NCBI GenBank assembly: GCA_963667035.1
Contig: OY762964.1
Span: 352,001 to 416,000, forward strand
Length of the DNA stretch: 64,000 nucleotides
Origin: Candidatus Cloacimonadales bacterium
GTDB taxonomy: Bacteria; Cloacimonadota; Cloacimonadia; Cloacimonadales; JAFGVF01
Reading direction: 5' to 3'
Below the pieces are notes generated by a model. That model saw only the letters and a list, made by a program, of their open reading frames with translations. It did no database searches and was not told the DNA's origin. Numbering within the stretch: the stretch's first letter is position 1; each line of letters begins with the position of its first letter. Positions 27,258 through 47,114 of this stretch are shown here, piece by piece. A program made the translations under genes and the position numbers.

Positions 27258-27291
27258 TGTAGTGCTCTCTGTAGGAGAAATTGGAGGTTAT

Positions 27292-27738: not shown

Positions 27739-28252
27739 ACATATTCGACCCCATCCGGGGTCGGTTGGTGTTTTCGTGGATTGTTTACCATGCATTTCAT
27801 ACATGGCTACTCATATTTAATCACTCCGTGATTATTCCTGACTATTTATGATTGTGTTTTGGGATTGCTAACCATGAAATGGTTACATGTGAGTAGCCCC
27901 GAATGCAATTCGGGGTCACTAATTTCACATGAAATTAACAACTCCAACGGGGTTAAATATTGCCAAATGATTTCTCCGGAATGAAACAATTTTTTCTTAA
28001 CATATATGCAAAAACTAAGACTCAATTCCTCAAAATAATATAGCAACGGAATCTAGTTTCACATCATATCATATTCGATTTATAGATATGCTATTCTGGC
28101 TACTTGTTATAGGCAAGTATATGAATGATTAGCGTAGAACAATTATCTTGACGTAATATTTATAGTGATTAATAAATCCTTAACAATAAAATTGTTAAAA
28201 AATAGGAATATCACTTTTAGTAGGGATGCTATTGTGGTAAAGAGAGGAAAAA

Positions 28253-29477: not shown

Positions 29478-31241
29478 TTACTTTATAAAAACAAACTTCT
29501 TTTGAGTCCGAACATTGCCAGTTTCTAACATTATGAAATATACACCGGAGCTGTAATCATCTACGTTGAACATTTTATCAAGACTAAGAACTTGCTTCCC
29601 GGAACTAATCATTACATTGCTATTTCTTCTCAATAGACGACCTTTTATGTCGTAAAGAGATATGGTTGAATATCCCGATGACTTTGTATCAATTTCTACT
29701 AATACATTATTGTAAGCGGGATTTGGATATACCGATAACAGTAAAGGTTGGGTAGATGTAACATTTTCATCAATAGCAGTAAGTCCTGTGACTACAACAT
29801 TATCAACAGCAAGCAACAAGGCATCAAAAGAACAACATTCAATGCCAATTCTAAAGCTCTGATTACTCCATGGTTCGATTGGAAATTCATAAAGTGTCCA
29901 GTTATCGGTTACTTCAATATAATCGGTTTCATGTAAGGATATTGGATTCTCAATATCAGCATCCGGATAGATATACACTTTGATTCTTTCTAATCCATAT
30001 TGAGAGGTCATGGATCTTGTCATAAAACTCAGAGAACCTGATGTAATAGGACTTATCACAGGAGAGATGATAATGTCTTCATTCGGAGGGATTACTGAAG
30101 CAAGAGAAACTAGGCATTTCTCTCCCGTAAAAGCATTGAAAGGGAAACCGATAAGCTGTGAAGGTTCCCATACGACAAAACCATGAGCATTACCTTCTCC
30201 ATCAAAGTCCCATTCTCCAAGACCATAAGTGAGACTACTATCATTGTCTAAGCAAGTCCATGGCTGTCCTAAATCCTGAAACGAGGTATAGTCTTCAAAA
30301 TCATCTTGAAACACCATATTTTGTCCCGAGCTGGTAGTAAAACTCCAAGTGGGACCAACTCTTATCTCATCTGAGAATGTACCTTCAACTCGCCAAAAGT
30401 AATGAGTTCCGGTCTCTAAATCGAAAGGAATATCCAGAGTTTGTTGAGCTGTGTTGTTGCTTAAAAGGGTGAGATTTGATTCATTAGTACCCAGATAAAC
30501 ATTGTAGGACTCAGCATTCCAATACCAATTCAAATTAGTATTGATAGGAACATCAACCGAACCGTTATATGGAAAGGGTTGTTCCGGAGTTAGCATCTCA
30601 CGATTAACCAGCAACTTTATGTTGGGTAGATTTGTCTCTCTTAATGCTGAATAATTATTAAGAGCATCAGTGCTTACCGGAGAAGTCATGCTCCCCGTGA
30701 ATAATCCCATAGTATCTGTATAGCTGTGAGCTAGAAAGCGTTCATAAGAGGACATCATGCCATCACGGGATTCCTTTATGCTGATGAGTAAATTTTCTCC
30801 GTTTTGGTATATATAGGGAGTATCAAAACTGATAGACAGCCAACCGGACGTGGTATCAATGAACTGATAGTTATCCGTACTCCAAGTTCCGCTAAAGCAT
30901 TCTTGCAAATCACTATCCTGTTGCCAATCGATGTTGTTGAAACTTGAATGTTGAGTTGTTCCAAGCTTCACAATCAGATCATTTTGATGTTGGAAGAATT
31001 GATTGTAAGCATCTTGGATCGGGCTGTCTGAGTCAAAGTTCAGATTAAAAGCAATCCCGATTATCTCATAATCCTCAGATAAGAGATAATCGGGATAAAT
31101 CATTTGTGAGTAGCTGTAGTTTATTCTGTTAAATATAGGTAGATGAGAGTTAGTAATGTTACCTTCTCCGATTTGTATCTGCTCGGTTGAGTGAAGCAAG
31201 CAGATACAATATAAGAGTAGGGTAAACAATATCTTTCTCAT
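29478..31241 (-). CDS. Secreted protein with FN3-like and cleaved-adhesin (choice-of-anchor J)-like domains and T9SS-type C-terminal sorting domain
   Basis: Signal peptide; 'YNVYLGT..YFWRV..GPTWSFTT'; 'DDFEDY..WTCLDND'; 'YPNP..YDIKGR..SGVYF'. Confidence 0.8.
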   Translation of the reverse strand: MRKILFTLLLYCICLLHSTEQIQIGEGNITNSHLPIFNRINYSYSQMIYPDYLLSEDYEIIGIAFNLNFDSDSPIQDAYNQFFQHQNDLIVKLGTTQHSSFNNIDWQQDSDLQECFSGTWSTDNYQFIDTTSGWLSISFDTPYIYQNGENLLISIKESRDGMMSSYERFLAHSYTDTMGLFTGSMTSPVSTDALNNYSALRETNLPNIKLLVNREMLTPEQPFPYNGSVDVPINTNLNWYWNAESYNVYLGTNESNLTLLSNNTAQQTLDIPFDLETGTHYFWRVEGTFSDEIRVGPTWSFTTSSGQNMVFQDDFEDYTSFQDLGQPWTCLDNDSSLTYGLGEWDFDGEGNAHGFVVWEPSQLIGFPFNAFTGEKCLVSLASVIPPNEDIIISPVISPITSGSLSFMTRSMTSQYGLERIKVYIYPDADIENPISLHETDYIEVTDNWTLYEFPIEPWSNQSFRIGIECCSFDALLLAVDNVVVTGLTAIDENVTSTQPLLLSVYPNPAYNNVLVEIDTKSSGYSTISLYDIKGRLLRRNSNVMISSGKQVLSLDKMFNVDDYSSGVYFIMLETGNVRTQKKFVFIK

Positions 31242-31242
31242 T

Positions 31243-32253
31243 TTACTTCACTACTACAACCTTCTTAGCTAAAGTCTTATTCTCTTTTGATTTAAGAAAA
31301 TAGAAACCATTAGCAAGATTACGAGTATTTACTTCTCTGCTCCCGTCTATATCCATAACTTTTCTTCCCTTGATATCATACAATGCAATATCCGATATTT
31401 CATTATCCGCTTTCAGTTTGAAGCTATCTCTACAAGGATTGGGATAAACAGACATTGTAGGAATAGGTTGTATGTGCTCTTCATTATCGGTAGGAAGATA
31501 TTGATAAACAGAACGATAGTATAATTCAAGATTGTCTGAAGCTGAAGTGCCGTAAGAACTCACAGTTTCAGCTAATACACCATTTTCATAAGTGTTAACT
31601 GAATGAAAGGAGTGATACTCTGTTCCTGAATTCAAATCTGTATTGAACATATCCGTTTGAGATATACCGAATTCATTATAAACATACTCGGTTCTGTTCA
31701 TTTGAACCCACCCTCCATAGTATTCAATATATGAATAAGAGATAGAACTTGTCAAATTGCCATTAGTATATGTATATATATCATATAGTTCCATGTCACC
31801 ATAATCAGAATAATTAGTTTGATTCATCCTATACAATTCACCATTTTGCCATAAATTATCCCAAACAGCTGAAACTTCCCATGCTCCATTCTCCCATACA
31901 TAATAGGTTTTTAAATCAAGACCGTCTTCGCAATATTCATATTCCATCTTAGCGGTTAACAGCCAAGAACCATTATTATTTTCATAGTACATGTCTTGTA
32001 TAATATCACCGTCTTCATTATAAGTATTTTCATACTTGTATTGCTGAGTTCCTGAATCAATAATCCCATTAAAGGAGATTGTGTAATCAACTAAATTGTC
32101 ATCATCTGTGTAAAAATAATCAGTATATCTATTCTGTTGCCAGCCATTGCTATATTCGTAGCTAACTATCTTGTTGATTCTTGGGTCTCCATCAGTTGCT
32201 ATCAATATCATAAATGATGAAAGTATTAAAAGTAATAATATAGTTTTTTTCAT
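31243..32253 (-). CDS. Secreted Tyr-rich repeat protein with T9SS-type C-terminal sorting domain
   Basis: Signal peptide, repeated 'EY.Y..G' units, 'VYPNP..YDIKGR..GFYFL'. Confidence 0.8.
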   Translation of the reverse strand: MKKTILLLLILSSFMILIATDGDPRINKIVSYEYSNGWQQNRYTDYFYTDDDNLVDYTISFNGIIDSGTQQYKYENTYNEDGDIIQDMYYENNNGSWLLTAKMEYEYCEDGLDLKTYYVWENGAWEVSAVWDNLWQNGELYRMNQTNYSDYGDMELYDIYTYTNGNLTSSISYSYIEYYGGWVQMNRTEYVYNEFGISQTDMFNTDLNSGTEYHSFHSVNTYENGVLAETVSSYGTSASDNLELYYRSVYQYLPTDNEEHIQPIPTMSVYPNPCRDSFKLKADNEISDIALYDIKGRKVMDIDGSREVNTRNLANGFYFLKSKENKTLAKKVVVVK

Positions 32254-32418: not shown

Positions 32419-32494
<76 letters not shown>

Positions 32495-32534: not shown

Positions 32535-32903
32535 GTGTTGAAAATACCCTATTTACAAGTGTTTATGACTCTTCTTACTTGTAAATTAGTTATACTATAC
32601 ACTAATAATTGCAGAAGATAAAGAAAATCTAATCTGTTTACAAATTGGATAAAGTCATTATAGATGCCTTGTTTTATAACCTATAGATTAGCAATTGTTA
32701 GGATATAGATATTCATAGCGAGTTTCGGAAATGCCACTTAAAAAGCAAGTATAGATGAAATGGGCATATGTGTCAGTAAACTTACTAATCTAAACATAAT
32801 CAGTCACAAAGCCTATAATAGTTTACTTAGTATAATCATTGTTTAGTACCTAATATCCTAATAGTGCTATAAATAGTTATTTTCAACTCCGACTAAAAGA
32901 AAA

Positions 32904-33232
32904 CCTCCTAGAGCGGAGGTCAATTTCAACTTTTTGGCATTGAAATGGTCTATGTCCCAACAGGGGCATTTGTCGTAACCCCTCCTTATGCGGAGGTCAA
33001 TTTCAACCTCAAATTCAATCCAAGAGAACTCGGAATGGCTAGTGTGTCGTAACCCCTCCTTATGCGGAGGTCAATTTCAACATGAAATGGTAGAAGAATA
33101 TATTGGATACTTTGAATAATGTCGTAACCCCTCCTTATGCGGAGGTCAATTTCAACACTAGGCATGGCTGTAGTGATGTCTTGTCTCATACAGAAAGTCG
33201 TAACCCCTCCTTATGCGGAGGTCAATTTCAAC
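32904..33232 (-). CRISPR. CRISPR array 1: 4 full 36-nt repeats, 1 truncated repeat, 4 spacers
   Basis: GTCGTAACCCCTCCTTATGCGGAGGTCAATTTCAAC at 32972, 33046, 33121, 33197; partial TAGA-variant at 32904-32930; leader on the right. Confidence 0.97.
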
Positions 33233-33515
33233 CGCTACCATTTTCAACCCTCTGATAATGCACGTTTAAAATCCCATTTCTGCGAGTCTCCAAAAAATGA
33301 CCTAAAAAAAACCATTTTTAGAGAGGTCTGCAGGATTTCGTGTAACTCATTGATTACCAACAAGATACAAAGAAAGACAATAAACATAGATAAATGCTTA
33401 TTATACAATAGCTTACACGAATAGTCGGAAATAGTTTGCTGTATTAAATATAAGCAAAAATCGATTCACCGAAAAATTAGGTAATCTGCGGTACAGGTTG
33501 CTATAACCTGCACTT
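33233..33515 (-). promoter_or_regulatory. CRISPR leader 1
   Basis: Abuts the first repeat; homologous to 46420-46702; IHF-consensus match AATCAATGAGTTA on minus at 33343-33355. Confidence 0.85.
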
Positions 33516-33634
33516 TGCATGATTCTTAAAAAACTACTCAGCTTACAAACACATCTATCACACTTTCAATTAGCAATATACGATATATACTTAAATCATA
33601 AAAACAGTCAATATAAATCAGTTTTTCAGAGTGA

Positions 33635-33901
33635 TTATTCAACAAAAAAGAAAAGTTCCGGTAATTCTTCGCCAATCACTTTCGAGTTTTTAGTACAATT
33701 CTTACACAATCTGAAGATATGAACTATGCCATCATCTTTTCTAATTGTTTCAATATCTCTCCTGATATGTTTAATCTTATTAGGTGTAGCTTCAACCAAA
33801 AACAAAGACTTCTGAATTCTTAACCCTTTCTTTTCTAAGTAGTGAGCAAGCTTAGTTCTTATCTTGTCACATGTAATATCGTAAGCGATAATATATGTCA
33901 T
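33635..33901 (-). CDS. cas2: CRISPR-associated endonuclease Cas2
   Basis: 'YIIAYDI', 'GLRIQKSLF', 'LCKNC', 88 aa. Confidence 0.96.
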   Translation of the reverse strand: MTYIIAYDITCDKIRTKLAHYLEKKGLRIQKSLFLVEATPNKIKHIRRDIETIRKDDGIVHIFRLCKNCTKNSKVIGEELPELFFFVE

Positions 33902-36465
33902 AAGAATCTATAAGCTTTAAACTTAACACCAAGCAATAGAGAATTTTTAAATGATCTGACCATCTTCTCAATCCATACTTCATAGGTATATGATTGATTT
34001 TTAACGCTAATCTCTCTCTTCATAGTTGACTCAAATGCTCTGATAAAAGTTCTGAAACCTACAGAGTCAAGTTTCAAATATGACGAACCATCTATACTAT
34101 AAAAATTACTCTTAGTTATCTGCTTCTTGTGAATCAATGAAAGAACTATTCTATCAATAAGAAAGCGGAAGCATTCCATTAAGTCAGAAGCCAGTGCTTC
34201 ATGCGTTCCTCTTCCCATGTGAAAGATTCCGTTAAAAGAGTTGATTCCGTTTGCAATTAGTGACTCAGAGAAACGCCTATAGAGTAGTGAATATCCAAGT
34301 GATAAAAGAACATTGACCGGACCAATTGGAGGATGGTAGGATCTTGATTCAAATGGCATGGGAGCTATTAAATCTCTAAAATGCTTGAAGTATGTCTTAG
34401 CGGCATAACCTTCCATACCTCGGATTGATTCTATTGAGTTAGACTGTTGAATCTTATTTAGCATGGAGCCTAGTTGCTTCTCATTAATCTTTAATCTTTT
34501 AAGTAGTCGATACTGGTTTACAATCTTTGTATAGGCAATTTCTCTAACAAAATCAAGTTTGAAATTTGAATAGTCATAAGAGTTACTAGCATTGAATAAC
34601 TCAGCGGTATTCGATATCTTGTTATGAGTTAGATATCCCCCCAAGGGTCTTCCATGAATAGAAAGAAAGTAGATAGGTATCTGCTCTCTTATAGCTCTGT
34701 AGATAATTCCTCCGCTTATGCGAGGTTTACCAAAGATAAGGATTCTGCTTATCTCCTTCCATGTATATTTTGTTGTAGATTCTTTTGATTCAACGAATAT
34801 ATAATTTCCCCTTGTGCTTGCATACTTAATCGAAAATGACAAATATAGCGGTTTGGAATTGCAGTTTGTCAGTTTAGAAAAATCAGACCAATCGGTATTT
34901 TCAATCGGTTTTCTCTCAGGAATGAAGATGGATGATTCAGAGATTCTGTAGCCTAGGAAGCTTAATTGTGATGCTTGGGTAAACTCCAAATACTTATCCT
35001 CGTTTATCTTCAATCCTAAGTGTGTTAGCATTTGCTTTATCTGATTCAATATTTCTTCTTTATTATCGGTTTTACCTACAATAACCATATCGTCAGCATA
35101 TCTGATAAGTTTTAAATCTTTCCTGTTTCTAAACCAACGGTCAAATGCTAGCATTGCAAAGTTAGATAGAAGAGGTGAAAGTGTATTACCTTGAATAAGT
35201 TTCTTGGAGAAATACTTAGCTATAAGTTCTATCTCTTCCTGAGCAACAGATTGTGCTTTAAGCATAAGAATAATTTTAGAGATTGATATAGAATCAAAAA
35301 ATGCACTTACATCAAGCTTCAGGCCCCATTTAAAACCTATATCAAACTCTTTTTTTACTGCAGAGGCAGCTAAATGATGAGAGTATCCCTTTCTATAAGC
35401 GAAGCAACTATATGTTAACAACCTTTGGAGTCTCTTGTCAAAGATGTCTGTGAGAATTGAAAGAACCAGTTTATCTATAATCCTATAAGAGGCAATGTTT
35501 CTATAGTTCCCGTTCTTCTTTTTTGCTCTGAACATATCCGGAGGTGAAGGATTGTAATCCGACATTACTATCTGATTGGATAGCTTTCTTAAATAATCGG
35601 GATGCTCTAAGAGTTCTGCACCTGTCATATCATTCCCGGACTCATTGCTTTCTACAAGCTCTTGCAATTTTGAGTGGAGATTGGAAAATGAGAATTTTGA
35701 GTGATGAAGAGTATTCATATCATATATCGGGTTAGGTAATTCTTCAACATAATAGAATCCGAACCCAAAAGTTCTATTCTTTCCAAGACCGGTAAATTGC
35801 CCCCAATGAAACAGTTTCAGTAACTCTTGAGAAAATGTTCCTCTTAGTACTATCCCTCCAATAATCCCACCAATTGTTTTTTTATACTCAATATCTAACC
35901 AGATGAAGGAGCTATTGCTCATACAGATTCCTGAAGTATCGGGAACAGAAAGTTCAAGAGCATTACTTAAGTGCTGTATGAATTCAGCTAAATCAAAGTG
36001 AAAAGGGTGAAAGAATCTTCCTTCTGATTTATCCATTCGTTTTAAACGTAGAGGAGCTTGAAAGATAAGTGTTATCTTCTTCAAGTTCTGAGTAGTAAGA
36101 TTTGAGTCTGCATGGGGTTGAAATTCAAAATAGTTCCAGTTCTCTAATACAATAGTTTCATTTAATACAAAATGATTGCCTCTAGTGATATAGTTCTTCT
36201 CATTAGTTTCAAACCATTTCAATAGTACTAATCTTCCTTCATTATTTGTTGCTATGTTGACCGGGACAATATCATTTTTCTTCAAAGTATCAGGAGATGG
36301 ATATGGAATAATGTTTATTTCCAGTTCTTTTGCAGAATTATCAGAGACTTTTCTAAGCTCGTTTCTAAATAAAGCACTCCAATGTATACCTGTATATATT
36401 GGCAAGTTAGTTATATCATTAATAACTTTGAATTGAATGTTGAACCAGTAACGATAGTACTTCAT
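33898..36465 (-). CDS. cas1: Cas6-reverse transcriptase-Cas1 triple fusion
   Basis: N-terminal Cas6 with G-loop 'GLGKNRTFGFG'; RT 'LDVSAFFDSI', 'QGNTLSPLLSN', 'RYADD'; Cas1 'RGMEGYAAKTYF', 'NVLLSLGY', 'GIFH', 'LASDLMECFR'. Confidence 0.95.
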   Translation of the reverse strand: MKYYRYWFNIQFKVINDITNLPIYTGIHWSALFRNELRKVSDNSAKELEINIIPYPSPDTLKKNDIVPVNIATNNEGRLVLLKWFETNEKNYITRGNHFVLNETIVLENWNYFEFQPHADSNLTTQNLKKITLIFQAPLRLKRMDKSEGRFFHPFHFDLAEFIQHLSNALELSVPDTSGICMSNSSFIWLDIEYKKTIGGIIGGIVLRGTFSQELLKLFHWGQFTGLGKNRTFGFGFYYVEELPNPIYDMNTLHHSKFSFSNLHSKLQELVESNESGNDMTGAELLEHPDYLRKLSNQIVMSDYNPSPPDMFRAKKKNGNYRNIASYRIIDKLVLSILTDIFDKRLQRLLTYSCFAYRKGYSHHLAASAVKKEFDIGFKWGLKLDVSAFFDSISISKIILMLKAQSVAQEEIELIAKYFSKKLIQGNTLSPLLSNFAMLAFDRWFRNRKDLKLIRYADDMVIVGKTDNKEEILNQIKQMLTHLGLKINEDKYLEFTQASQLSFLGYRISESSIFIPERKPIENTDWSDFSKLTNCNSKPLYLSFSIKYASTRGNYIFVESKESTTKYTWKEISRILIFGKPRISGGIIYRAIREQIPIYFLSIHGRPLGGYLTHNKISNTAELFNASNSYDYSNFKLDFVREIAYTKIVNQYRLLKRLKINEKQLGSMLNKIQQSNSIESIRGMEGYAAKTYFKHFRDLIAPMPFESRSYHPPIGPVNVLLSLGYSLLYRRFSESLIANGINSFNGIFHMGRGTHEALASDLMECFRFLIDRIVLSLIHKKQITKSNFYSIDGSSYLKLDSVGFRTFIRAFESTMKREISVKNQSYTYEVWIEKMVRSFKNSLLLGVKFKAYRFL

Positions 36466-38045
36466 TGCTTGGGAAATGGTGACAACTTCAATATTCTATC
36501 AATTAGTACTTCTTTAAGTATTGGTAGCCAATTGATAAAAGTAATATGCTTCATGCTTTCTATTTCGGAGATAATCAGTTTAATTGTTGAACTTTGTTCT
36601 TCTATCTTGTTAGTACCGTGATTCAAATTAATGCCTAGACATTCTTCTATAGTTCCTAAGTTTATTGGCTTTCCTTGATGAATAAAATCATTACGTTCTA
36701 ATGAAAGTCTTTTAATCTTATCCATAATGGACATTATTGAATCAAAATTTACGCCTTCTTTTATCCCTTGGCTAATAATCATGTTATAACTTATCCAATT
36801 GGTTTTATAATAAGTTTGTTCATCTGCAGTTTTCCTATCATTAGTAACTGTCACTTTTAAAAAATAAGGTAGCTCTACTTTAAAGGGGATATGTCTCAAG
36901 TCGAAGAAGAACTTCTTAGGTTTATTTCTATCAGCCTGTATAAAAACAACGGATTTAGAACCAATAGTTTTAATCTTATCCATTATCAGTAACTCACCTG
37001 TAGAAATAAGGGTAGTACTCATACCCCACCAATTTCCTTTTCTTGATTCCTGAATTGATCTCAACAAGTTACAACCGACAGCATTTTTAGAATCAAGCAT
37101 CTCATTCATTGTTATCAATCGTGTAATCAGATTACTATTCTTATGTTCTTTCTTGTAAACATCGATTAATTTCTCTGTTTCCTTTTTATCTCTATACAAC
37201 CATGATACCGCAATCTCCAGTAATCTGAAAGCATGAATGTCAAGTCTCTTCAGTTTAAGCTCATTAGCAATACTAATAGCACCTAAGAAGTCATAATCTT
37301 TAACTCTTTGTAACAGTGCAAATTTAAGGGTATATTTATTTTGAATATCCTTTTTCCGGCTGATTCTTATCCTACCCTTAGATTGTTCCATTAAACAATT
37401 TCTGTTTGGGAAGTAAGCATTGATAGCAGTATCTAGAGCATTAGAGATTCTTGGCATTCCTCCGGAACTGAAGACTTGAACAGATGAGATATTTCCATTA
37501 TCTTGCTTCAAAATATCCTGCATGAAAGAGTCTATTTGTCTATATGCAAATTCGTCTGTTATATCTGCATTTCTTGCATTACAATCTTTACAAAGATTAA
37601 TAACACTTATATCATTTATATACTTTTCATAATGATTCATCATCTCATCTATAAATGATTTGATAATGCTTGAGTATAAATATGGTTCTTTTTCTAGAAA
37701 CCCTTTTAGATGAATAGATAGATTCTCTTTACTTATATGACTTCTATCAGTAGTTAGCAAAACAAGCTTGTATTCTTCTTCATTACTAAGAGATTGCAAC
37801 ATAGCTTCTGTCAAAGGGAATGTAAGACACTTATCACTTTCTATAAAGTCCTTAAGTGTTTGTTCTTGTTCTCCTTCTTTTCCAAACATAGGATTCCAGT
37901 TTAGCTCTTTCTTTTTTAATGCACATGATAGCTCACTTTGAACTTCATTAAGTGAAGTTTTATTAAAGCTGTCATAGTTATAATTTCTTCCGGATACATA
38001 TAATTGAACATCTCTCTGTCCTATGGTTTGTATCAACAGAATCAT
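36462..38045 (-). CDS. Type III accessory effector, CARF-like N-terminus with HEPN-like C-terminus (Csx1/Csm6-like)
   Basis: Rossmann-like start 'LLIQTIGQRD', 'VFSSGGMP', C-terminal RxxxxH 'RNDFIH'; lies within the cas operon. Confidence 0.7.
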   Translation of the reverse strand: MILLIQTIGQRDVQLYVSGRNYNYDSFNKTSLNEVQSELSCALKKKELNWNPMFGKEGEQEQTLKDFIESDKCLTFPLTEAMLQSLSNEEEYKLVLLTTDRSHISKENLSIHLKGFLEKEPYLYSSIIKSFIDEMMNHYEKYINDISVINLCKDCNARNADITDEFAYRQIDSFMQDILKQDNGNISSVQVFSSGGMPRISNALDTAINAYFPNRNCLMEQSKGRIRISRKKDIQNKYTLKFALLQRVKDYDFLGAISIANELKLKRLDIHAFRLLEIAVSWLYRDKKETEKLIDVYKKEHKNSNLITRLITMNEMLDSKNAVGCNLLRSIQESRKGNWWGMSTTLISTGELLIMDKIKTIGSKSVVFIQADRNKPKKFFFDLRHIPFKVELPYFLKVTVTNDRKTADEQTYYKTNWISYNMIISQGIKEGVNFDSIMSIMDKIKRLSLERNDFIHQGKPINLGTIEECLGINLNHGTNKIEEQSSTIKLIISEIESMKHITFINWLPILKEVLIDRILKLSPFPKQ

Positions 38046-38121: not shown

Positions 38122-40026
38122 TTATTCACAATACTCTTGCCTTCTTAACTTAGCATAATCCCCACGAATTTTTGCATGCCAACTCATTATTTGCCCATTC
38201 TCTTTTGGATAAGAACCTGTTTGAGATACAATTTTGAAATATTTCCCTATTGACTCTATAAAAGTTTGTTGCATTTTTTTATAATTAATTCTTAAGTCTT
38301 CGTTGAAACTTTTATAGTCTTCATTATTGATAAAACCATTATCAACAAAGAATTTTACTGTACCTAAACCTTTGTTTTTAGCATAACCTATCTGATGAGC
38401 ATATTTAGCTTCCTCAAATTTTTCTTCTCCATCAAGCTCTAGTGCAAGTTTAAGTAGTAAGTATTCATTTATAGTTAGGTTATTAAAGTTTACTCTAAAC
38501 TTGAAATGTATCGGTTTGTTGGGAGAGGCTTCTATAGCCTCATGCATTATCACACTATAATCTATCGGATTGCTTAGTGAAGGAGCAGGGTTTGTAGTTC
38601 TCTTGAACACTTTTCTTCCGGAGAGTCTTGTACATCCATTTCTGTTTAACGGTTCACCATAAGTAACAACTTTATTTCTATTGTTTTGTTGAAGATAAAA
38701 TTCATAAGATGATGGTTTCGGAGAACCTGTTCTAGGTAGAATAATATCTGTGGTTTTTAGATCCTGATCACAAATAGCGAAGTTAAAATGAACTTTACCG
38801 GACTTACTGTTATTATCAACCGAGTAACCAAACATTTCATCTACAATTGATTTCCCATCATCTACTTTGATATCATCAGGGAAATCTTGGGAGTTTATTT
38901 CTTTGTCAAATGCCCATGGATAGTAGAATGTTTTACCAAAAGTCTTTACATGTATAAGAGTTTTTTCAATAAACTCCTCTGAGTTTTCCCTAAGAACTCG
39001 TTTACTGCTCTCTGTATACTCGTAGAAGATTACGTCTCCTTGTTTTAGCTTAATCATAGCATCCCAGTTCTTTTTTATTTCTTTCTCATGTACATTAACA
39101 TCAAGAGGATGATCCTCTAGATGATATTTTTTAAGAGTTAAGAATGTGCTCTCGTACCCATTTTTAGTTTCTTTGTTTATCGAATGTTGGTTACCCGTTA
39201 TTCTGAAGTATTGTTTTGGAATATAGATACAGTCATGGTTCCCTGTATGTATATTACCGTTAAATAATCTTGCAAAGGTTCCATTACCATCTAGACCATT
39301 TGAATACTTGAGACAGTAAAGAGTAGTTTCTTGAGCATTGTCATCATAGTTACGTATTCTCCAACGTCCTTGTTGATTATGAAGCCTATGATTGTAAGGA
39401 TTCAAGTTAAGTCTATTATTATGTATCGTAGTGTAATTCTCATAGTCTTGCTTAGTAGAGTATATGACAGGGACATCCTTCAATGAACCAAAATGCGAAA
39501 AAGTAAGAGAATTATCATGTGTGAATAGTACTATCCCTATTCCCATTTTAACAGAATCTGATGGACGAAAATTCAAGTTAGGTCTCATGATAAATCCTTT
39601 ACTGTTAACTCTTCTCATTTTCGTGTTAGTATATGAAGCAATAAATGAGCTGATGCAACCTTTAAGGGTGTAAGGAGAAATGAGTATTCTATCGTTAACT
39701 TTGAGGGGATATATGTGTGTTGAATTACTCTCCCCATCAGAATGTTCATTTCCGACTAATAATTGGTTCAAAGCATACATTGAACAGTTTAGATAACCGG
39801 TATATAGTTTATTTCCATCCATCTCTGTTGTATTAAACTTAGCTTGTTTGATATCTTCGTGGTTCTGATTATTCTTAATCGGAATAAATGTATATGGTAA
39901 TCTGTCTCTATTGAATCTAATTCTGTTTTCCAGCTCAGTAGGATTAACATCAGTTGTATTGTTATGATTACGGTTTCCACGGTTGTAGTTTTGGTCATGG
40001 TTATGATGTTCACTTCTGTTGTTCAT
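38122..40026 (-). CDS. cas7: Type III-D Cas7 with large insertion (TIGR03986-like RAMP)
   Basis: 'PYTFIP', 'ISPYTLKG', 'SPKPSSYEFY', 'GRKVF', G-loop 'IGYAKNKGLG'. Confidence 0.88.
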   Translation of the reverse strand: MNNRSEHHNHDQNYNRGNRNHNNTTDVNPTELENRIRFNRDRLPYTFIPIKNNQNHEDIKQAKFNTTEMDGNKLYTGYLNCSMYALNQLLVGNEHSDGESNSTHIYPLKVNDRILISPYTLKGCISSFIASYTNTKMRRVNSKGFIMRPNLNFRPSDSVKMGIGIVLFTHDNSLTFSHFGSLKDVPVIYSTKQDYENYTTIHNNRLNLNPYNHRLHNQQGRWRIRNYDDNAQETTLYCLKYSNGLDGNGTFARLFNGNIHTGNHDCIYIPKQYFRITGNQHSINKETKNGYESTFLTLKKYHLEDHPLDVNVHEKEIKKNWDAMIKLKQGDVIFYEYTESSKRVLRENSEEFIEKTLIHVKTFGKTFYYPWAFDKEINSQDFPDDIKVDDGKSIVDEMFGYSVDNNSKSGKVHFNFAICDQDLKTTDIILPRTGSPKPSSYEFYLQQNNRNKVVTYGEPLNRNGCTRLSGRKVFKRTTNPAPSLSNPIDYSVIMHEAIEASPNKPIHFKFRVNFNNLTINEYLLLKLALELDGEEKFEEAKYAHQIGYAKNKGLGTVKFFVDNGFINNEDYKSFNEDLRINYKKMQQTFIESIGKYFKIVSQTGSYPKENGQIMSWHAKIRGDYAKLRRQEYCE

Positions 40027-40516
40027 GGTACAACCTCCATTCGTCTTTATCTCTTAATACTAATATGTCATTCGAATCCAAATTTTCAGGAATAGCTCCA
40101 ATGTCTTGAGCAAAAGAGAATCGATAATTTCTGTTTGCAGATTTTGAATCCAAAACTTTACTCTTCCCTTCTTTCTTTGAATGTAGTATTTCAAATTCAA
40201 ATTTTTCTGCTTTATCCCTGCTTATTTCAGATAGATGATAAACATAGTCTTTGCAAGAGCTATCTGTTGCAATAAATAGGAATTGTACATCATTGTTAAA
40301 AAATACTAATCTGATACAATCAGAGTAGCTTTCAAATGAATCATAATTGATTTCTTTATGTAGAAATATACCTGTATTGCCTTTCTTAGCTTTTCCCTTC
40401 TCTTTCTCAAGGACTATGTTAGCAAGACATATTGTCCATCTTCTTTCTCCTACAACCCAAAGGTTTCGGTACTTGTTCACTAGATCCTTTATCTCTTCAA
40501 ATCTAACGATATTCAT
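40010..40516 (-). CDS. csx19: Csx19-like type III-D subunit
   Basis: Small ORF between Cas7-Cas7 and Cas7-insertion, 'IRLVFFN' motif; GAGGAGG RBS before ATG 40516; assignment largely positional. Confidence 0.6.
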   Translation of the reverse strand: MNIVRFEEIKDLVNKYRNLWVVGERRWTICLANIVLEKEKGKAKKGNTGIFLHKEINYDSFESYSDCIRLVFFNNDVQFLFIATDSSCKDYVYHLSEISRDKAEKFEFEILHSKKEGKSKVLDSKSANRNYRFSFAQDIGAIPENLDSNDILVLRDKDEWRLYHEQQK

Positions 40517-41726
40517 TGTCACCCTCCTCAATGCTGATATTTGGATAACAGCCATTTGCCCCTAGTGATATAAGTCTTTTATTACAACCTTCACTAATGA
40601 AATTCATTAGATCTCTAGCATCTATATCACACGGAATTCTTATCAAACCCATAGCATTAGCATGAAACAGTCGTTCTTCATTAAATTTCCCACTCCCATA
40701 AACAGCTCTGGTAAATTCATCTTCCGCATGACGTTCAATATTGATTAAGTGCTTTCTTATATCATCGTGATTTACGTTTACCATTAAATCGGGAAAGTAG
40801 ACATTCCCATGATTTGCTCCATCTTGCCCAAAGAATTCTTTCAACCATTTACTATATCCATACTTCTCCAAGTACATTGAGAATGTACCTTTTAAAGATG
40901 AACCCGGTATGTAGAGGTGTTTTCCTGTATTAACAAAAATCCCGGTAGAAGGATTATCAGCGAGACTACTATGACTAACACCACCCTTTATTAGAAGGGC
41001 ATTGGTTCCATATCCATCTTCTTCATCATCTACTGATACAACTATTTCCCAAGTATTATAACGTTTTTTTGCTTGATGATTCAGAGGTACATCAATTGAT
41101 TCTAAAGGATTTCCATCCAGATAATCACGATAGTTTTCTTTGGATATGCAAGTTTTTGTAGCTTTCTCTAATCTGCAAAAACCGTTACCGGATGTACTAT
41201 GACCTCCAAAGAAAGCTCCTTCCTTTTCCCAAGAAGTTAATACTGTTTCTACCCATCTAGTAAATGACTCAATACTCTGTTTCTTGTTCTTGAGAGAAAG
41301 ATTGTCGATTGTTATCGAGATATCGAAATCTACATTTTCAGGTTCTATTTCCCAATAGCTGAAAAGTTGTTTTTGCTCAGCCGTTTTTGTCTCTCTATTA
41401 ATTTTAACTCGATTTCTTATCATAGCGTTCGAATTGTATTGCATTAAGGATACAGTTCTAAAGATTAATGGTGATGCGTATTCTTCTTCATCTTCGGATT
41501 TAAAAAGCTTATTCCAAAGTGTTGTTTCATCTTTCGTAGGAGTAACGACATTCTTAAGAGTATCAAAGAAAACACCTGAGATAGAAGTTCCCGGTATAAC
41601 TAATTCCCCCAAACCATTCCTTATGATTTCGAAGGCACCAATAGGAGATTTCTGCCCACAACCTATATGAAGAGCAGATTTTAACTTAATCTTTGCATTA
41701 TAAATAATTTTAATCGGATTACACAT
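40503..41726 (-). CDS. cas7: Cas7-Cas7 tandem RAMP fusion
   Basis: Two RAMP units: 'LHIGCG..IPGTSISG..FGGHSTSGNG' and 'LLIKGG..YIPGSSLKG..FFG'; start at ATG 41726. Confidence 0.88.
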   Translation of the reverse strand: MCNPIKIIYNAKIKLKSALHIGCGQKSPIGAFEIIRNGLGELVIPGTSISGVFFDTLKNVVTPTKDETTLWNKLFKSEDEEEYASPLIFRTVSLMQYNSNAMIRNRVKINRETKTAEQKQLFSYWEIEPENVDFDISITIDNLSLKNKKQSIESFTRWVETVLTSWEKEGAFFGGHSTSGNGFCRLEKATKTCISKENYRDYLDGNPLESIDVPLNHQAKKRYNTWEIVVSVDDEEDGYGTNALLIKGGVSHSSLADNPSTGIFVNTGKHLYIPGSSLKGTFSMYLEKYGYSKWLKEFFGQDGANHGNVYFPDLMVNVNHDDIRKHLINIERHAEDEFTRAVYGSGKFNEERLFHANAMGLIRIPCDIDARDLMNFISEGCNKRLISLGANGCYPNISIEEGDNEYR

Positions 41727-43809
41727 TCTGCCCCCTTTTGCTCTCAATTCTCTTTTTTATTCCTAAGAATAAGAGCCTAATTAATTCATACTTATCATTT
41801 CTCTCGTTAAACTCTGAAGCATTAAATAGCTTTTCAAACTTCTCCCATTTTTCTTTATTCAATGTTGTTTTACCATGTGCTATCTCTTCCAAGATTTTTT
41901 CTGAGTCATATTTTGAATCCATGTATGAGATAATTTTACTACAGAAAGTAACTGAGCTCTCATCGGATTTATACTCTGAGAGACCTTTATTACTATTCTT
42001 AAGTTTTTCAATGAATTGAAACTGCTCATTAATTCGGTTTAGCTTTTTTATTTGGTGTATAGCAATTTTAGGGTCACTCTTTACTGTTGCATTAAACTCA
42101 GGAGTAGTAAAATTGAAATCATGGACAGGCAGGTTAACTATAAACTTACCAAATCCCTCATTTGTATTGAATCCTAAACCTTTACTTCCCAAGCTAACTA
42201 AATTCGTTATGTTTATGTTATCAGATTTCGACTCAAATAAAAAACATGAGCCTTTTTTTATCACTTTTTCTGAGAATCTTCGTAAACCTGATGTTCCAGA
42301 GAAACTCTGATGGAGTTCAGTTTCAACTTTGCTATCGATCAATTCGTATGAGTCAGGTAATCCAAAGTCTTCAGCTTTCAGCATGGTTTTGGGGTTTAGT
42401 TTATCATCATACAAGATAACATCAGATGTGAGGGTGATGGTTATCCTATCTGTTGACTTAGGAGGTTGAATGCTATCTTCTGAAACAGAGGTTATTTCAA
42501 CTATTTTTACAGGTTGAGCTCCACGTCCCACATGTAAGTTATATGTACCATTCAACCAATCATGATAGATTACTTTAAACATCTTTGCGTCTTCTATTGA
42601 ATTAAAAGAGATGTTCCCAATAAATCTTGTTCCCTTATATATCATTTCCTGAGTGAAAACAGCATTTTTCTCTGTAGTTTGAGTCGATTCCGTAATCCTG
42701 TTTCTTAGAACTAGTTCTATTTTAGGAGAATATACTTTAGCGTTTTCAGGACACATCTTTTTATCAACAAAAACTATATACTCATCACTGAAGCTTTTAT
42801 CACTTTGAGAGTTCATACTTTTATACGTTAGGGTATTGCGAGTTACGAGATTAGGAAATGCTTTTTTATCCATTGTCGTAGGAGTAATGTTCAATAACCA
42901 ATGAGGTATCTCATATTCATAACAGTCTTTTTTCCTTTTATTCAGGTAGTAATTTTTATATGAGTTGGTACTCTTACGTTTACGTAATGATAATGGAATC
43001 GGTATAACCTCGTGTTTCGCACTGGATTCTTTAGGTATAGGATAAAAGTTTGTTATTCTTATATTATCGTGGTCTATGATACTTGATTCGGATCCAAGTT
43101 TAAGAAGTACATTTCTAAACATACCTAAGGCAGTTGTTCCTTTTATATAGTTTAGAGTATGGATGATGTTTCCTGTTTGCCCTGCACCTGCGATACAGGT
43201 ATTATTCAGTAATTCAAGAATAATTCTGTAATCCTTTATATTCGTTACACCATCAAGAGATTTTACATCCTTGTCTTTATTGGGTATAATGGTTGTCTTA
43301 ATTGCACCAAAACCTCTTCGCCTTAATCCTCCAAATAGCTTTAGATTTTTGATCCCGAGTTTTAGTAAACCTTCAATTTCTTTTTCATTATTACCGAGAG
43401 TTTGGAATTCCAGGCTACAATCAAAGATTGCCCCTTTAGAACCAAATTCAATATCCCTCAAAGCACCTTTATCTTCGTCTTCGATAATGTCATCAACTTT
43501 AGTGAAAGTATGAATAACGAATGGGTTTAGGGCTGTTTCATCTTGATTATAGTTAACAGAGACATCCAAAGAACCAAGATTACCATATTTAAAGATAGAA
43601 TTGTATGATTCCCTATATTCAGTAAGAACATTTTTTACTTCTCGACAAGATTGTCTTAACAAACCTTTCAATGTCTCAGTATTCAGAGCAGGATTCCCTT
43701 CATCATCTTTCATCTGACCATCACTATATAAACCAACACAATCCATACCTGTACCTATATGAAAATCCTCAAGAGTTTCTATTTTAAAATTAATCCTAAT
43801 GAGTTTCAT
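41719..43809 (-). CDS. Cas7-Cas5(Csx10)-Cas11 fusion
   Basis: Cas7 'FHIGTG..TLKGLLR..FGGLRRRGFG'; Cas5 'YIKGTTALG..VGRG..KGSCF..GLGFNTNEGFG'; helical C-terminal tail (putative Cas11). Confidence 0.82.
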   Translation of the reverse strand: MKLIRINFKIETLEDFHIGTGMDCVGLYSDGQMKDDEGNPALNTETLKGLLRQSCREVKNVLTEYRESYNSIFKYGNLGSLDVSVNYNQDETALNPFVIHTFTKVDDIIEDEDKGALRDIEFGSKGAIFDCSLEFQTLGNNEKEIEGLLKLGIKNLKLFGGLRRRGFGAIKTTIIPNKDKDVKSLDGVTNIKDYRIILELLNNTCIAGAGQTGNIIHTLNYIKGTTALGMFRNVLLKLGSESSIIDHDNIRITNFYPIPKESSAKHEVIPIPLSLRKRKSTNSYKNYYLNKRKKDCYEYEIPHWLLNITPTTMDKKAFPNLVTRNTLTYKSMNSQSDKSFSDEYIVFVDKKMCPENAKVYSPKIELVLRNRITESTQTTEKNAVFTQEMIYKGTRFIGNISFNSIEDAKMFKVIYHDWLNGTYNLHVGRGAQPVKIVEITSVSEDSIQPPKSTDRITITLTSDVILYDDKLNPKTMLKAEDFGLPDSYELIDSKVETELHQSFSGTSGLRRFSEKVIKKGSCFLFESKSDNINITNLVSLGSKGLGFNTNEGFGKFIVNLPVHDFNFTTPEFNATVKSDPKIAIHQIKKLNRINEQFQFIEKLKNSNKGLSEYKSDESSVTFCSKIISYMDSKYDSEKILEEIAHGKTTLNKEKWEKFEKLFNASEFNERNDKYELIRLLFLGIKKRIESKRGQNV

Positions 43810-45298
43810 TCTGTCCTCCGGATTTGACTTTACAGAAATCCATTAACTCAATAATATCTAGAGCTGTATTCAAAAGTATGTTGTCACCTAAGGAATGATA
43901 TTCAATTAGATTGCTCGGGAAATTTAAATACTTGCTTAATAGTTCAGTATTAGCTTTTCCTGTTTTCAGTATAGTTCTTAATTGCTTGTATTTGTTTCTA
44001 CCTGCAGCATCTTTTTCATTGGTAGCTAAATTGTGTTCATTTTTTGATTGTTCCCATATTTTCATAGCTGTCTTAATTCTACAAGGTCTCTGAGTTAGTA
44101 TTTCGATTGTATCTTCATATTTGTTTAGATAGTTTATCTCTCGAATGGTTTCAATATCTTCGGAACCTGATGGGAAATGTACATGCCAGTCAATTGTATT
44201 TACGTATTCAATACTATCATCTACATTCCAAATTCTACTTTTAACTTTTGCTGAAGAAAGTAAAGACTCTGCTAATGCGTGAGCTTGTGAGAACGGATAT
44301 GTGTATTTCGTGAAAGCTATTCCCGCTGAAATGGTTGTATTAGATAAAGCTGTACAAAACTTGTCTACAATATCAAATGCGATTTCAGGAACCGATATTA
44401 TTAACAAATCATCTCCTCCCAGCATTAAGACCTGATATTTATGATTGTCATGGATTTTACATGATGCTTCCAGAGCCTTTCGGTAAGCTTCTCTTCTCGA
44501 GAACCAGAACTTTTCATATTCAACTAATGTCTCAAACATGGGCTTTAGTTTTAATAACTCTCTTTTATCTTTGAAACAGTCCCCCATTGCATTACCATCA
44601 ATTGCAATTACTGCCATTTTATTGTTTGACGGAATTATTGAAGCCTTTGCAAGACTCTCAAAGTCAACTGGCATATTATCTGCTTTATTTGTTTCTTTTA
44701 GAAAAGTGGATAGAAAATCTGAAGTTTTTCTACTGTAGAAGTCTTCCCCCTGTTTCTTAATATGTTTAGAAAACTGGCTTTCATTTTTACTTTTTACTAG
44801 TTGAGGATTAATCCCATCATCCGAGGGGTAAAAGTACGGATTATCAATAAATATGTCGCTTGGCTCTTTACACAGTGTTTCTGTTCCTTTATCCTTGAAA
44901 TCATCAAGTGTCTTTATCTCCTCAAAATCACATTCAATGCATCTTATTGAGAGACTAACTCCCGGAATTATTTCCTTTCCTCTATTAAAAGCTGATAAAG
45001 CGAACTCCTTTGCCTCTTCAGATGTAGTAAATAAAGAATCGAAATGCCCACCTGCCGAACTGATTATCCCTTTCTCGAAATTTGCTTTCAAATCATCAGT
45101 TTCCCACTTCTCGTTAATCTCTATACTTGATATATAGTTAGTCCACTCTTCTGGAACATCATATTTTTCTCGAAGCTTCGGAAGTTCCTTCACAAAGAAT
45201 TCTCCAAGCAGAGAGTTTGCACCCAACATTGTTTTAAGTTTTGGAAGTTTAAAGATAAATGATTGTACTTTATTTGTTTTTAGGAATAAATAGACCAT
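43796..45298 (-). CDS. cas10: Cas10, HD-less, intact GGDD palm
   Basis: 'VQSFIF..L....GANSLL', 'SAGGHF', 'IDGNAMG', 'LGGDDL', 'ISAGIAF', 'AESLLSSAK'; only 500 aa, no N-terminal HD domain. Confidence 0.95.
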   Translation of the reverse strand: MVYLFLKTNKVQSFIFKLPKLKTMLGANSLLGEFFVKELPKLREKYDVPEEWTNYISSIEINEKWETDDLKANFEKGIISSAGGHFDSLFTTSEEAKEFALSAFNRGKEIIPGVSLSIRCIECDFEEIKTLDDFKDKGTETLCKEPSDIFIDNPYFYPSDDGINPQLVKSKNESQFSKHIKKQGEDFYSRKTSDFLSTFLKETNKADNMPVDFESLAKASIIPSNNKMAVIAIDGNAMGDCFKDKRELLKLKPMFETLVEYEKFWFSRREAYRKALEASCKIHDNHKYQVLMLGGDDLLIISVPEIAFDIVDKFCTALSNTTISAGIAFTKYTYPFSQAHALAESLLSSAKVKSRIWNVDDSIEYVNTIDWHVHFPSGSEDIETIREINYLNKYEDTIEILTQRPCRIKTAMKIWEQSKNEHNLATNEKDAAGRNKYKQLRTILKTGKANTELLSKYLNFPSNLIEYHSLGDNILLNTALDIIELMDFCKVKSGGQNETH

Positions 45299-45955: not shown

Positions 45956-46419
45956 AGACTAACCCCTCCTTATGCGGAGGTCAATTTCAACAAATTTGCA
46001 AAAGTGGAAAAATCCTTCTGATGTCGTAACCCCTCCTTATGCGGAGGTCAATTTCAACACAAGACTCACTAAGAGATCTTTGATAAAATTAAGCAATAGT
46101 CGTAACCCCTCCTAGAGCGGAGGTCAATTTCAACTCTCGAAGATAACGAGGGTAACCCGATAGCCGTGTCGTAACCCCTCCTAGAGCGGAGGTCAATTTC
46201 AACTTAAAGAGTGTGGTTTATTTATGAGCAATTACATTAGGTCGTAACCCCTCCTAGAGCGGAGGTCAATTTCAACTCCTATAAAGGACAAGGAATTCTT
46301 GGCAAATGTAAAAGTCGTAACCCCTCCTAGAGCGGAGGTCAATTTCAACTATTTGAAACAATTCTAAGAGCAACCAACTGAAGGTCGTAACCCCTCCTAG
46401 AGCGGAGGTCAATTTCAAC
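45956..46419 (-). CRISPR. CRISPR array 2: 7 repeats (terminal one degenerate), 6 spacers
   Basis: Repeats at 45956 (degenerate), 46023, 46099, 46168, 46241, 46314, 46384; spacers 31-40 nt. Confidence 0.97.
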
Positions 46420-46702
46420 CGCTACCATTTTCAACCCTCTGATAATGTACGTTTAAAACCCCATTTCTGTGAGTCTCCCAAAAAAGACTCAAAAAACACC
46501 CTATTTTGGAGAGATCCGCAGGATTTTATATAACTCCATGACTGTCAATAAGATATAGAAAAAGACAGAAAAAGTGACTAACGTTAGCATTTACAAAGAG
46601 TTATGCCAATATCCATAATCCTTTTGCTCTATCAAAGACAAGCAAAAAACGATTCACCGCAAAATTCGAAGAAGCTGCTGTACAGATTGCTTTAACCTGC
46701 AT
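46420..46702 (-). promoter_or_regulatory. CRISPR leader 2
   Basis: Begins CGCTACCATTTTCAACCCTCTGATAATG, identical to leader 1, and stays alignable for about 280 nt. Confidence 0.85.
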
Positions 46703-47114
46703 TTAGCAAACTTCAAAAACATAAGCACATTGGGTGATAAGTTTACAAGCACTTCTATAATATTAACAATGATCTAGTTTAAATAAGTAACAAAACCGGA
46801 AGATGTCAATAAAAAAATGTTTTAATAGATATTAAAATAAATTATGAGGTTATTATTGATGATGTATAACTGGTAAAATCCCTAACCGGAATATTTTCCA
46901 ATATGTTAATAGGCTCATCAAGGGTACAGAAACCTTTTAAAGGAAAAGTTAGTATATGACTTGGCAGTTTCTTTAGTAGCAGTTACAGCAATTATAAGAG
47001 TTGTTCTATTTATGAGAAAATTTATTAATCGGATAATGATTCATGCTTCTTCCCAATAGAAAACGATTTCGTCTATTATGATTATAATTTAAATATGTGA
47101 GCAATTAGATTAAT

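Follow-up and report, generated by a model that had tools for sequence, protein, structure and literature searches.

The protein examined here, encoded on the minus strand of a 64,000-nt window (the whole stretch analysed: positions 352,001 to 416,000 of contig OY762964.1 in the Candidatus Cloacimonadales bacterium assembly GCA_963667035.1), adds a somewhat shortened member to the known Cas6-RT-Cas1 family, in which Cas6, a reverse transcriptase (RT) and the Cas1 integrase form one polypeptide, and it resides in a type III-D-like CRISPR locus. Very probably this fusion, encoded with Cas2 as the last genes of a type III-D-like operon, is an adaptation and maturation enzyme that looks functional; its RT activity, the uptake of RNA-derived spacers and the cleavage of the repeat are predicted from homology. 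A first-pass annotation of the same DNA, made from the letters and a list of open reading frames (ORFs), had presented it as a candidate small transcript-recording enzyme. The domains and motifs, the lone cas6 of the locus, the trimmed RT and the two leader-array units all stood up to our analysis, but novelty and compactness were overstated. In fact, the protein does not define a new type of enzyme, since fusions of this kind have already been characterised in Marinomonas MMB-1 and in Thiomicrospira (structures and biochemistry).

Domains, catalytic residues and relatives of the fusion

The fusion gene and its parts are located as follows (nt positions in the window):
33898..36465, minus strand: cas6-RT-cas1 gene (855 aa; Pfam, profile and model matches)
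35731..36465, minus strand: Cas6 domain (aa 1-245; two RNA recognition motif (RRM) folds, G-rich loop, Arg34)
35758..35790, minus strand: G-rich loop (aa 226-236)
34912..35700, minus strand: RT domain (aa 256-518; RT1-RT7, YADD; fingers and palm)
35188..35193, minus strand: QG motif (aa 425-426)
35089..35100, minus strand: YADD motif (aa 456-459)
33901..34860, minus strand: Cas1 integrase domain (aa 536-855; E685, H749, D761, E764)

The start of this ORF is credible because it overlaps the stop of the upstream gene (encoding a CARF-HEPN protein) by 4 nt and because the N-terminus aligns with the N-termini of the relatives; the start of cas2 overlaps the stop of the fusion gene, also by 4 nt. 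Together with the ORF, three Pfam domains, all exceeding their cut-offs, confirmed the triple fusion: CRISPR_Cas6 (PF10040; aa 134-237, E 3.8e-9, 37.6 bits against a cut-off of 25), RVT_1 (PF00078; aa 315-508, E 2.6e-28) and Cas_Cas1 (PF01867; aa 545-812, E 5e-56). NCBIfam added Cas1 (TIGR00287, 179 bits against a cut-off of 71.7) and a similarity to group II intron RTs. An AlphaFold2 model of the entire chain, based on an 81-sequence alignment, had a predicted local distance difference test score (pLDDT) of 91.9 and a predicted template modelling score of 0.89, with residues 524-533 as the sole low-confidence stretch. Its best Foldseek match was 7KFU_C from the Thiomicrospira Cas6-RT-Cas1/Cas2 complex (E 3.6e-39), and a 37-member family profile spans the whole Thiomicrospira chain (profile positions 11-880 against residues 17-971, E 5.9e-168). 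The G-rich loop, QG and YADD motifs lie where the first-pass annotation had placed them. Conservation of residues is counted below in an alignment of 81 full-length Cas6-RT-Cas1 fusions, and pairing with residues in the numbering of the Thiomicrospira paper uses an offset of 3.

The catalytic residues had been described as intact, and they are. In the Cas1 domain E685, H749, D761 and E764 are invariant (81/81 each), H749 pairs with the active-site H873 of Thiomicrospira Cas1 and R708 with R832; the domain as a whole (aa 536-855) superposes on residues 650-980 of 7KFT_D (VIA search; Z 31.3, root mean square deviation (rmsd) 2.5, 310 residues aligned). The catalytic and deoxynucleoside triphosphate (dNTP)-binding motifs of the RT are conserved across the family alignment, with D385 and D458 kept in 80 of the 81 members, D459 and G426 in 79 and Q425 in 77. 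The same type of search matched aa 256-518 to the group II intron RT GsI-IIC over its residues 5-290 (6AR1_A; Z 25.7, rmsd 2.2, 261 aligned); since the Cas1 domain begins at aa 536, only some 17 aa later (519-535), the RT consists of fingers and palm with no thumb. The RTs of the RT-Cas1 family have been described as thumb-less in the literature (PMC8102632; PMC11014452), including the four RT-Cas1 proteins shown to acquire RNA spacers (Mohr et al. 2024, PMC11014452).

The remark that the RT is trimmed just before the QG motif proved to be correct. A HMMER alignment of aa 251-520 places a 13-aa gap immediately before QG relative to all three group II intron RT structures shown (5HHL, 6AR1 and 5HHJ), and gaps of 12 and 3 aa (about 15 in total) relative to Thiomicrospira 7KFT; no long gap appears at this place against 8BGJ, a CRISPR-linked RT domain from Caloramator. 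[quoted passage not shown] From this definition and the position of the gap, the missing piece is the distal RT3a. Its shortening is common to the close relatives and not peculiar to this fusion: the distance from the RT3 Asp to the RT4 Gln is 40 aa in the compact clade to which the protein belongs; in the nearer relatives its median is 45 aa, with a minimum of 41, and in a more distant group 53 aa. As a basis of compactness the trim thus exists but contributes only 5 aa relative to the nearest relatives and 13 relative to the distant group, and is not the main shortening.

The relatives were collected by a HMMER search of 1.84 billion representatives, which gave 532 proteins at E < 1e-30; the 81 full-length fusions were chosen from the best 150 of these 532 and from a first search, with fragments and entries past P0155 left out. 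Their lengths lie between 854 and 1037 aa, with this protein and four close relatives, at 854-859 aa, taking the five shortest places. These close relatives, in records labelled Cloacimonadota, are 52-59% identical to it, one of them being the fusion of the MAG L002 described below; two partial relatives (P0006 and P0007) are 56% and 61% identical. Compared to the nearer relatives, the Cas6 N-terminal part of the compact clade is 137 aa vs 156 aa and the second Cas6 segment 51 aa vs 58 aa; compared to the distant group, the stretch from RT7 to Cas1 is 74 aa vs 112 aa. The bulk of the shortening therefore falls in the Cas6 N-terminal half and in the RT-Cas1 linker. Overall, the compact clade has lost 13 distal residues of RT3a and has a reduced N-terminal half in Cas6, and its linker is also much shorter than that of the characterised enzymes. 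As for the description of the protein as compact, the solved Thiomicrospira chain is 129 aa longer, but the next shortest full-length fusion among the 81 has 866 aa, only 7-11 aa more. Moreover, RT-Cas1 fusions without a Pfam Cas6 domain (P0018-P0025) are 689-752 aa long, and consequently this protein is not the smallest RT-Cas1, nor the smallest candidate RNA-recording enzyme.

In a FastTree phylogeny of 91 rows the compact clade has a local support of 100 and a long stem, and is placed as sister to an 886-aa protein inside a group holding metagenome-assembled genomes (MAGs) labelled Cloacimonadota and Atribacterota; FastTree is prone to joining long branches, and this tree contains no named members of clades 8 and 11. 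The latter are the published Cas6-bearing clades of RT-CRISPR systems, clade 8 being mostly from Proteobacteria and clade 11 from Bacteroidetes/Porphyromonas (Toro et al. 2017, 2018). The compact clade nests inside the large known Cas6-RT-Cas1 family. A literature search for RT-Cas1 in Cloacimonadota found no description of this clade; the supplementary tables of the clade papers may list relatives.

A scan of metagenomes with the fusion protein as a single query returned no relative, and a scan with the compact-clade alignment returned six loci. On two metagenome contigs (L090:10001-14007 and L089:885-7313) we observed a 517-aa Cas6-RT protein that is 50% identical to the fusion over aa 1-513 and stops where Cas1 would start. 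No cas1 or cas2 follows it; several short, partly degenerate arrays stand there instead, which share the repeat family of the fusion locus and include three or more variants of the repeat. This protein is either a natural Cas1-less form or part of a decaying locus.

Cas6 domain, repeats and spacers

When modelled alone, the first 250 residues of the fusion reached a pLDDT of 92.0. In a VIA search of this model against representatives the top seven rows were all Cas6 nucleases (Z 12.1-16.5, 195-214 of the 250 residues aligned), and the top Foldseek match was 6DD5, the Cas6 domain of Marinomonas MMB-1 (E 4.7e-11). The glycines of the G-rich loop are kept in nearly the entire family (G228 in 80/81, G234 in 81/81, G236 in 78/81). 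In the profile alignment to 7KFT, Arg34 aligns with the active-site R37 of Thiomicrospira Cas6, the mutation of which reportedly brought processing down to 12% (Wang et al. 2021, PMC8102632).

No second Cas6 was detected by Pfam, NCBIfam or PADLOC among the eight genes of the cas locus, one of which, a 181-aa ORF, matches no family; genome-wide, PF10040 matches the fusion gene alone. The first-pass annotation was thus right, as judged by these three libraries, in calling this the only cas6 of the locus. Extending the claim to the genome would be wrong, since a type I-B Cas6b is encoded some 1.55 Mb away. Two neighbours were considered as a hidden Cas6 and rejected: the 527-aa protein scores as CARF-HEPN, and the 181-aa ORF shows no G-rich loop by inspection and no Cas6 match. 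Elsewhere, a same-order genome contains a free-standing 274-aa frame (G027:C2:831183-831545) that shares 39% identity with aa 126-243 of the fusion (the second Cas6 half); judging from this similarity, it is possibly a relative of the donor of that half.

The substrates expected for such an enzyme, two arrays with their leaders, flank the cas genes:
32895..33232, minus strand: CRISPR array 1 (four identical 36-nt repeats and one degenerate terminal repeat; spacers of 41, 38, 39 and 40 nt)
33233..33634, minus strand: leader 1, between the cas2 stop and the first repeat
45956..46419, minus strand: CRISPR array 2 (seven repeats, the lowest-coordinate one degenerate; spacers of 31, 40, 33, 37, 37 and 34 nt)
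46420..46830 (approximate), minus strand: leader 2, homologous to leader 1

The two leader-array units pointed out earlier were recovered as arrays of five and seven repeats with homologous leaders, which align over ∼400 nt with 84% mean column identity and are near-identical in the ∼130 nt adjoining the repeat. Apart from the terminal ones the repeats are perfect. The degenerate repeat stands at the low-coordinate end of either array, which indicates transcription on the minus strand, as for the cas genes. The 36-nt repeat occurs in 11 copies in the genome, all at this locus. As minus-strand RNA it is predicted to form a hairpin of 5 bp with a 6-nt loop and pairing ends flanking it (−11.2 kcal/mol, z −2.5). 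The hairpin and the 3' tail are kept among seven repeats from five loci, one of which lies beside a 35%-identical fusion, and double changes preserve the pair at 2 of the 12 predicted pairs, these sequences being few and all related; the repeat of a related MAG (L002, described below) combines an identical 3' tail with a compensated change in the stem. This conservation of the repeat hairpin appears supportive and no more. For comparison, the Thiomicrospira enzyme is reported to cut a 35-nt repeat to a 26-nt 5' product (PMC8102632).

The arrays carry a record of past activity. In array 2 the five leader-proximal repeats have the loop GCTCTA and the two older ones GCATAA, a 3-nt difference. In CRISPR adaptation a new repeat is made as a copy of the first one, and the five newer repeats share one variant; hence at least four spacers joined array 2 after the loop had changed, and the pattern of variants records past spacer uptake in this array. 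Array 1 shows the mirror pattern (GCATAA in four repeats, GCTCTA in the degenerate terminal one), which suggests that an exchange between homologous leader-repeat units is an easier explanation than the same 3-nt change occurring twice. It also suggests that both loop versions are tolerated.

Several observations weigh against the activities proposed for the fusion. In the protein itself, Arg34 is an arginine in just 44 of the 81 family members, the RT is devoid of the distal RT3a, the packing of the domains against each other in the AlphaFold2 model is a prediction and, with regard to the handling of RNA by Cas1, Tyr710 and His711 occupy the positions of Thiomicrospira R834 and R835, the latter of which was proposed as a helper for RNA substrates (PMC8102632). 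As for the spacers, none of the ten matched the host genome beyond itself (blastn-short; other matches of at most 17 nt), no match to either array was found in 50,697 phage records, and a comparison of the 13.5-kb locus DNA with 203 same-order genomes gave cas, leader and repeat matches, none of them read as a protospacer. Finally, no RNA sequencing run contains the locus. The case for activity is therefore built on homology.

These observations bear on two other explanations. One is that the Cas6 domain has been kept mainly as a structural partner for the RT, the maturation of CRISPR RNA (crRNA) being left to the type I-B Cas6b or to a host RNase. The variability of Arg34 and the presence of the second Cas6 in the genome speak for it, and so does the report that mutation of the Cas6 active site in the Thiomicrospira enzyme also alters its ligation and RT activity (PMC8102632). 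We nevertheless regard it as quite unlikely, as Arg34 and the G-rich loop are present in all five members of the compact clade (5/5), the hairpin and 3' tail of the repeat are conserved together with the fusion in relatives, and the repeat is confined in this genome to a locus with no other Cas6 in its operon. The other explanation is an uptake of spacers from DNA only, with the RT being vestigial or serving another role, maybe as too weak an enzyme with its short RT3a and no thumb. It would fit the failure to trace any spacer to a transcript in the host and phage records searched, and the Thiomicrospira complex is reported to fully integrate double-stranded DNA (PMC8102632). On the other hand, the catalytic and dNTP-binding motifs are conserved family-wide, the fingers and palm superpose at rmsd 2.2 on those of an active group II intron RT, and the four RNA-acquiring RT-Cas1 proteins mentioned above are likewise thumb-less, so that we consider this explanation unlikely and retain a combined role of the fusion in adaptation and crRNA maturation as the preferred reading.

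Effector operon and genomic setting

The fusion gene adjoins cas2, type III effector genes and a CRISPR array. The remaining features of the locus are:
32419..32494, plus strand: tRNA-Lys (CTT) (ARAGORN; Rfam RF00005, 69.5 bits)
33635..33901, minus strand: cas2 (88 aa; PF09827 E 9.4e-17; TIGR01573 E 9e-16)
36462..38045, minus strand: CARF-HEPN (Csx1/Csm6-like) accessory protein (527 aa; PADLOC CARF_HEPN E 3e-13, 4e-6 and 1.2e-5)
38122..40026, minus strand: Cas7 with a large insertion, a RAMP of the TIGR03986 family (634 aa; PADLOC Csm3/Cas7_IIId E 2.6e-41)
40010..40555, minus strand: ORF of 181 aa and no known family, kept at the same operon position in L002
40503..41747, minus strand: double Cas7 (Csx7/Csm3-like; 414 aa; PF03787 E 8.7e-19; PADLOC Cas7_IIId E 3.8e-29, two stretches)
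41719..43809, minus strand: Cas7-Cas5 (Csx10) fusion (696 aa; PADLOC Cas7_IIId at aa 99-184, Cas5_IIId at aa 212-559)
43796..45298, minus strand: Cas10 (500 aa; PADLOC Cas10 E 2.2e-50; PF22335 palm2)

All eight cas ORFs are intact and on the minus strand. By the families they match, the effector module is type III-D-like and combines Cas10 with a Cas5 of the Csx10 type and several, partly fused, Cas7 paralogues. Cas10 contains the GGDD cyclase motif in its translation, and library scans did not detect an HD domain in it. Among PDB sequences the Cas7-Cas5 protein matches a single chain, named 'Cas7-Cas5-Cas11', from the type III-D effector 8S9T (E 9.8e-12), and the Csx10 model TIGR02674 matched in the locus below its cut-off. 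Likewise, the 634-aa Cas7 matched TIGR03986 with E 8.8e-37, under the cut-off of that model, and had no significant match among PDB sequences. The CARF-HEPN protein has an R-x4-H motif in its C-terminal part and no match in Pfam or NCBIfam. No Cas11 small-subunit model of Pfam, NCBIfam or PADLOC matched any of the eight proteins, and the last 130 aa of the Cas7-Cas5 protein could be assigned to no family. The 181-aa ORF found no usable match in Pfam (E up to 10), PADLOC, NCBIfam, PDB sequences or the ESM Atlas, and shares 39% identity (E 4e-33) with the 161-aa ORF at the syntenic place in L002; it is probably an uncharacterised effector subunit and, going by the gene order of type III-D systems, may be the counterpart of their small subunit.

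L002, a MAG labelled Cloacimonadota with a 57%-identical fusion, has the identical gene order, its proteins of 531, 696, 412, 161, 662, 547 and 859 aa being followed by cas2, leader and array. Contigs from three runs of one sample, which may be the source sample, are identical to the operon and end at the arrays; they do not provide independent support and gave no sign of new spacers. Between the old end of array 2 and the start of cas10 we noted a near-perfect palindrome of ∼80 nt (window 45527-45605), which could be a terminator or an element similar to repetitive extragenic palindromes, parting the transcription of array 2 from that of the cas operon. A related copy is found at L088:2700-2850 (∼1.0307 Mb in the same genome), between convergent genes near a third cas1 locus.

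The genome is a single contig of 3.10 Mb (98.2% complete). On one side the variable region that contains the locus is bordered by the tRNA-Lys gene, which lies ∼400 nt past the old end of array 1. In same-genus and same-family genomes devoid of the CRISPR locus this tRNA gene is 93-95% identical, and the spacing from it to the gene on the right flank is ∼15.4 kb here vs ∼10.5 kb in a same-genus genome with no match to the locus in between. With the fusion protein as query, no match was obtained in 11 same-family genomes, and an RT-containing match in 6 of 49 same-order genomes (one of the compact type, 57% identical, and five of a longer type, 33-36%); three further genomes among the 60 relatives searched matched in the Cas1 part only. 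At the DNA level the fusion gene was found in 3 of the 203 same-order genomes. This distribution fits a horizontal gain of the locus at a variable site; no integrase was seen by the tRNA-adjacent locus.

Two other loci with a Cas1 were observed in the genome. The type I-B locus (L087, 1936000-1954000) contains cas6b (PADLOC E 7e-56), cas8b, cas7b, cas5b, cas3, cas1 and cas4, and is free of the repeat of the fusion locus. Its cas1 is split by an in-frame TAA into ORFs of 123 and 211 aa and its cas3 into 641 and 123 aa, so that independent adaptation by this system may have been lost. A third Cas1 (294 aa; L088, 1028000-1040000) lies beside ORFs of 112 and 1056 aa; as judged from the Cas1 match and the ORF sizes alone, the layout looks like type II.

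Could the fusion locus be a decaying, horizontally acquired island that has lost adaptation? Its position at the tRNA gene together with the missing match in the same-family genomes, the small number of spacers (4 and 6), the Cas1- and Cas2-less relative sitting by degenerate arrays and the internal stop in the type I-B cas1 of the same genome would all be compatible with that. However, the eight cas ORFs are not only intact but also coupled, the catalytic residues are in place, all repeats but the terminal ones are perfect, and array 2 took up at least four spacers after the change of its loop. A decayed locus is therefore very unlikely in our view, and a functional-looking adaptation enzyme remains the preferred reading.

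Other features of the window lie outside the locus. A stretch of ∼100-130 nt within 48596-48799 matches at least 35 places in a same-genus genome at 72-82% identity and is a dispersed short repeat; Tandem Repeats Finder also flags 48674-48720. At 26389-27924 there is 1.5 kb of non-coding-looking DNA with several families of direct repeats of 25-121 nt, including a GC-rich hairpin motif in three copies. Just past the tRNA-Lys gene (29478-32253), two neighbouring proteins of 587 and 336 aa carry type IX secretion C-terminal sorting domains, and their region has 68% DNA identity in a same-genus genome.

Proposed mode of action and comparison with known systems

In the scheme that we propose, both arrays would be transcribed on the minus strand from their homologous leaders. 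By analogy to Thiomicrospira, the N-terminal Cas6 domain may bind the repeat hairpin and cut a few bases 3' of it, leaving an 8-9-nt 5' handle of repeat sequence, and the resulting crRNAs would be loaded into the Cas10/Cas7/Cas5 effector. Binding of a target RNA could then switch on the GGDD cyclase of Cas10, with the CARF-HEPN protein responding to the signal. In adaptation the integrase would be assembled, like the solved Thiomicrospira complex, from a Cas2 dimer and four protomers of the fusion. Its thumb-less RT would copy RNA protospacers into short complementary DNA (cDNA), and Cas1 would integrate DNA or RNA/cDNA where leader and repeat meet in either array.

A more far-reaching interpretation, which we put forward tentatively and hold to be rather doubtful, is that the 854-859-aa clade is a naturally minimised and more rigid form of Cas6-RT-Cas1, with the active site of the RT uncovered at rest owing to the loss of the distal RT3a, the ∼17-aa linker and a pared-down first RRM. 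If this were true, short cDNAs would be passed directly to the integrase, and the protein would be the smallest enzyme uniting crRNA processing, reverse transcription and integration. [quoted passage not shown]

RNA-recording tools have their natural basis in Cas6-RT-Cas1 enzymes, few of which have been studied. A member that is 129 aa shorter than the solved enzyme and is accompanied by a Cas2 of its own, two leaders and two variants of the repeat is a convenient additional test case for asking which parts of the RT (distal RT3a, length of the linker) are needed for RNA spacer uptake, how tolerant Cas6 is to changes in the repeat loop, and how such enzymes pair with fused-subunit III-D effectors. 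It opens no new question, as Cas6-less RT-Cas1 proteins are smaller and the biology is that of the published systems.

Of the latter, the closest is the Thiomicrospira Cas6-RT-Cas1 with Cas2 (7KFT/7KFU; Wang et al. 2021, PMC8102632), described with the same domain order, an adjacent cas2 and a type III locus. The Cas1 cores superpose as given above, and both enzymes have the active-site Arg of Cas6 and the active-site His of Cas1. Its chain has 984 aa vs 855 aa here, with 16-24% identity in the structural alignments; relative to it, the present fusion is reduced in three places (by about 15 residues before QG, strongly in the RT-Cas1 linker, and in the N-terminal part of Cas6) and has YADD in place of FADD and Tyr-His in place of R834-R835. 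The Cas6-RT-Cas1 of Marinomonas mediterranea MMB-1 (6DD5; Mohr et al. 2024, PMC11014452), which provided the best Foldseek match of the Cas6 model, is the same type of fusion and shares the proposed double role in crRNA processing and RNA spacer uptake; according to that paper it is linked to type III-A, whereas the effector genes here are of the type III-D kind. Uptake of RNA-derived spacers is also recorded in a review for two RT-Cas1 proteins described there as having no Cas6 domain. These are the proteins of Vibrio vulnificus, which has a type III-D link, as here, and of Fusicatenibacter saccharivorans; both join the RT to Cas1, and crRNA maturation is separate in both. On the effector side, the fused Cas7-Cas5 resembles that of the type III-D effector 8S9T-8S9X, although only aa 355-563 of the 696-aa protein align with the 8S9T chain and its Cas11 part was not detected here; beyond this fusion, the present locus encodes two further Cas7 proteins, one double and one carrying an insertion.

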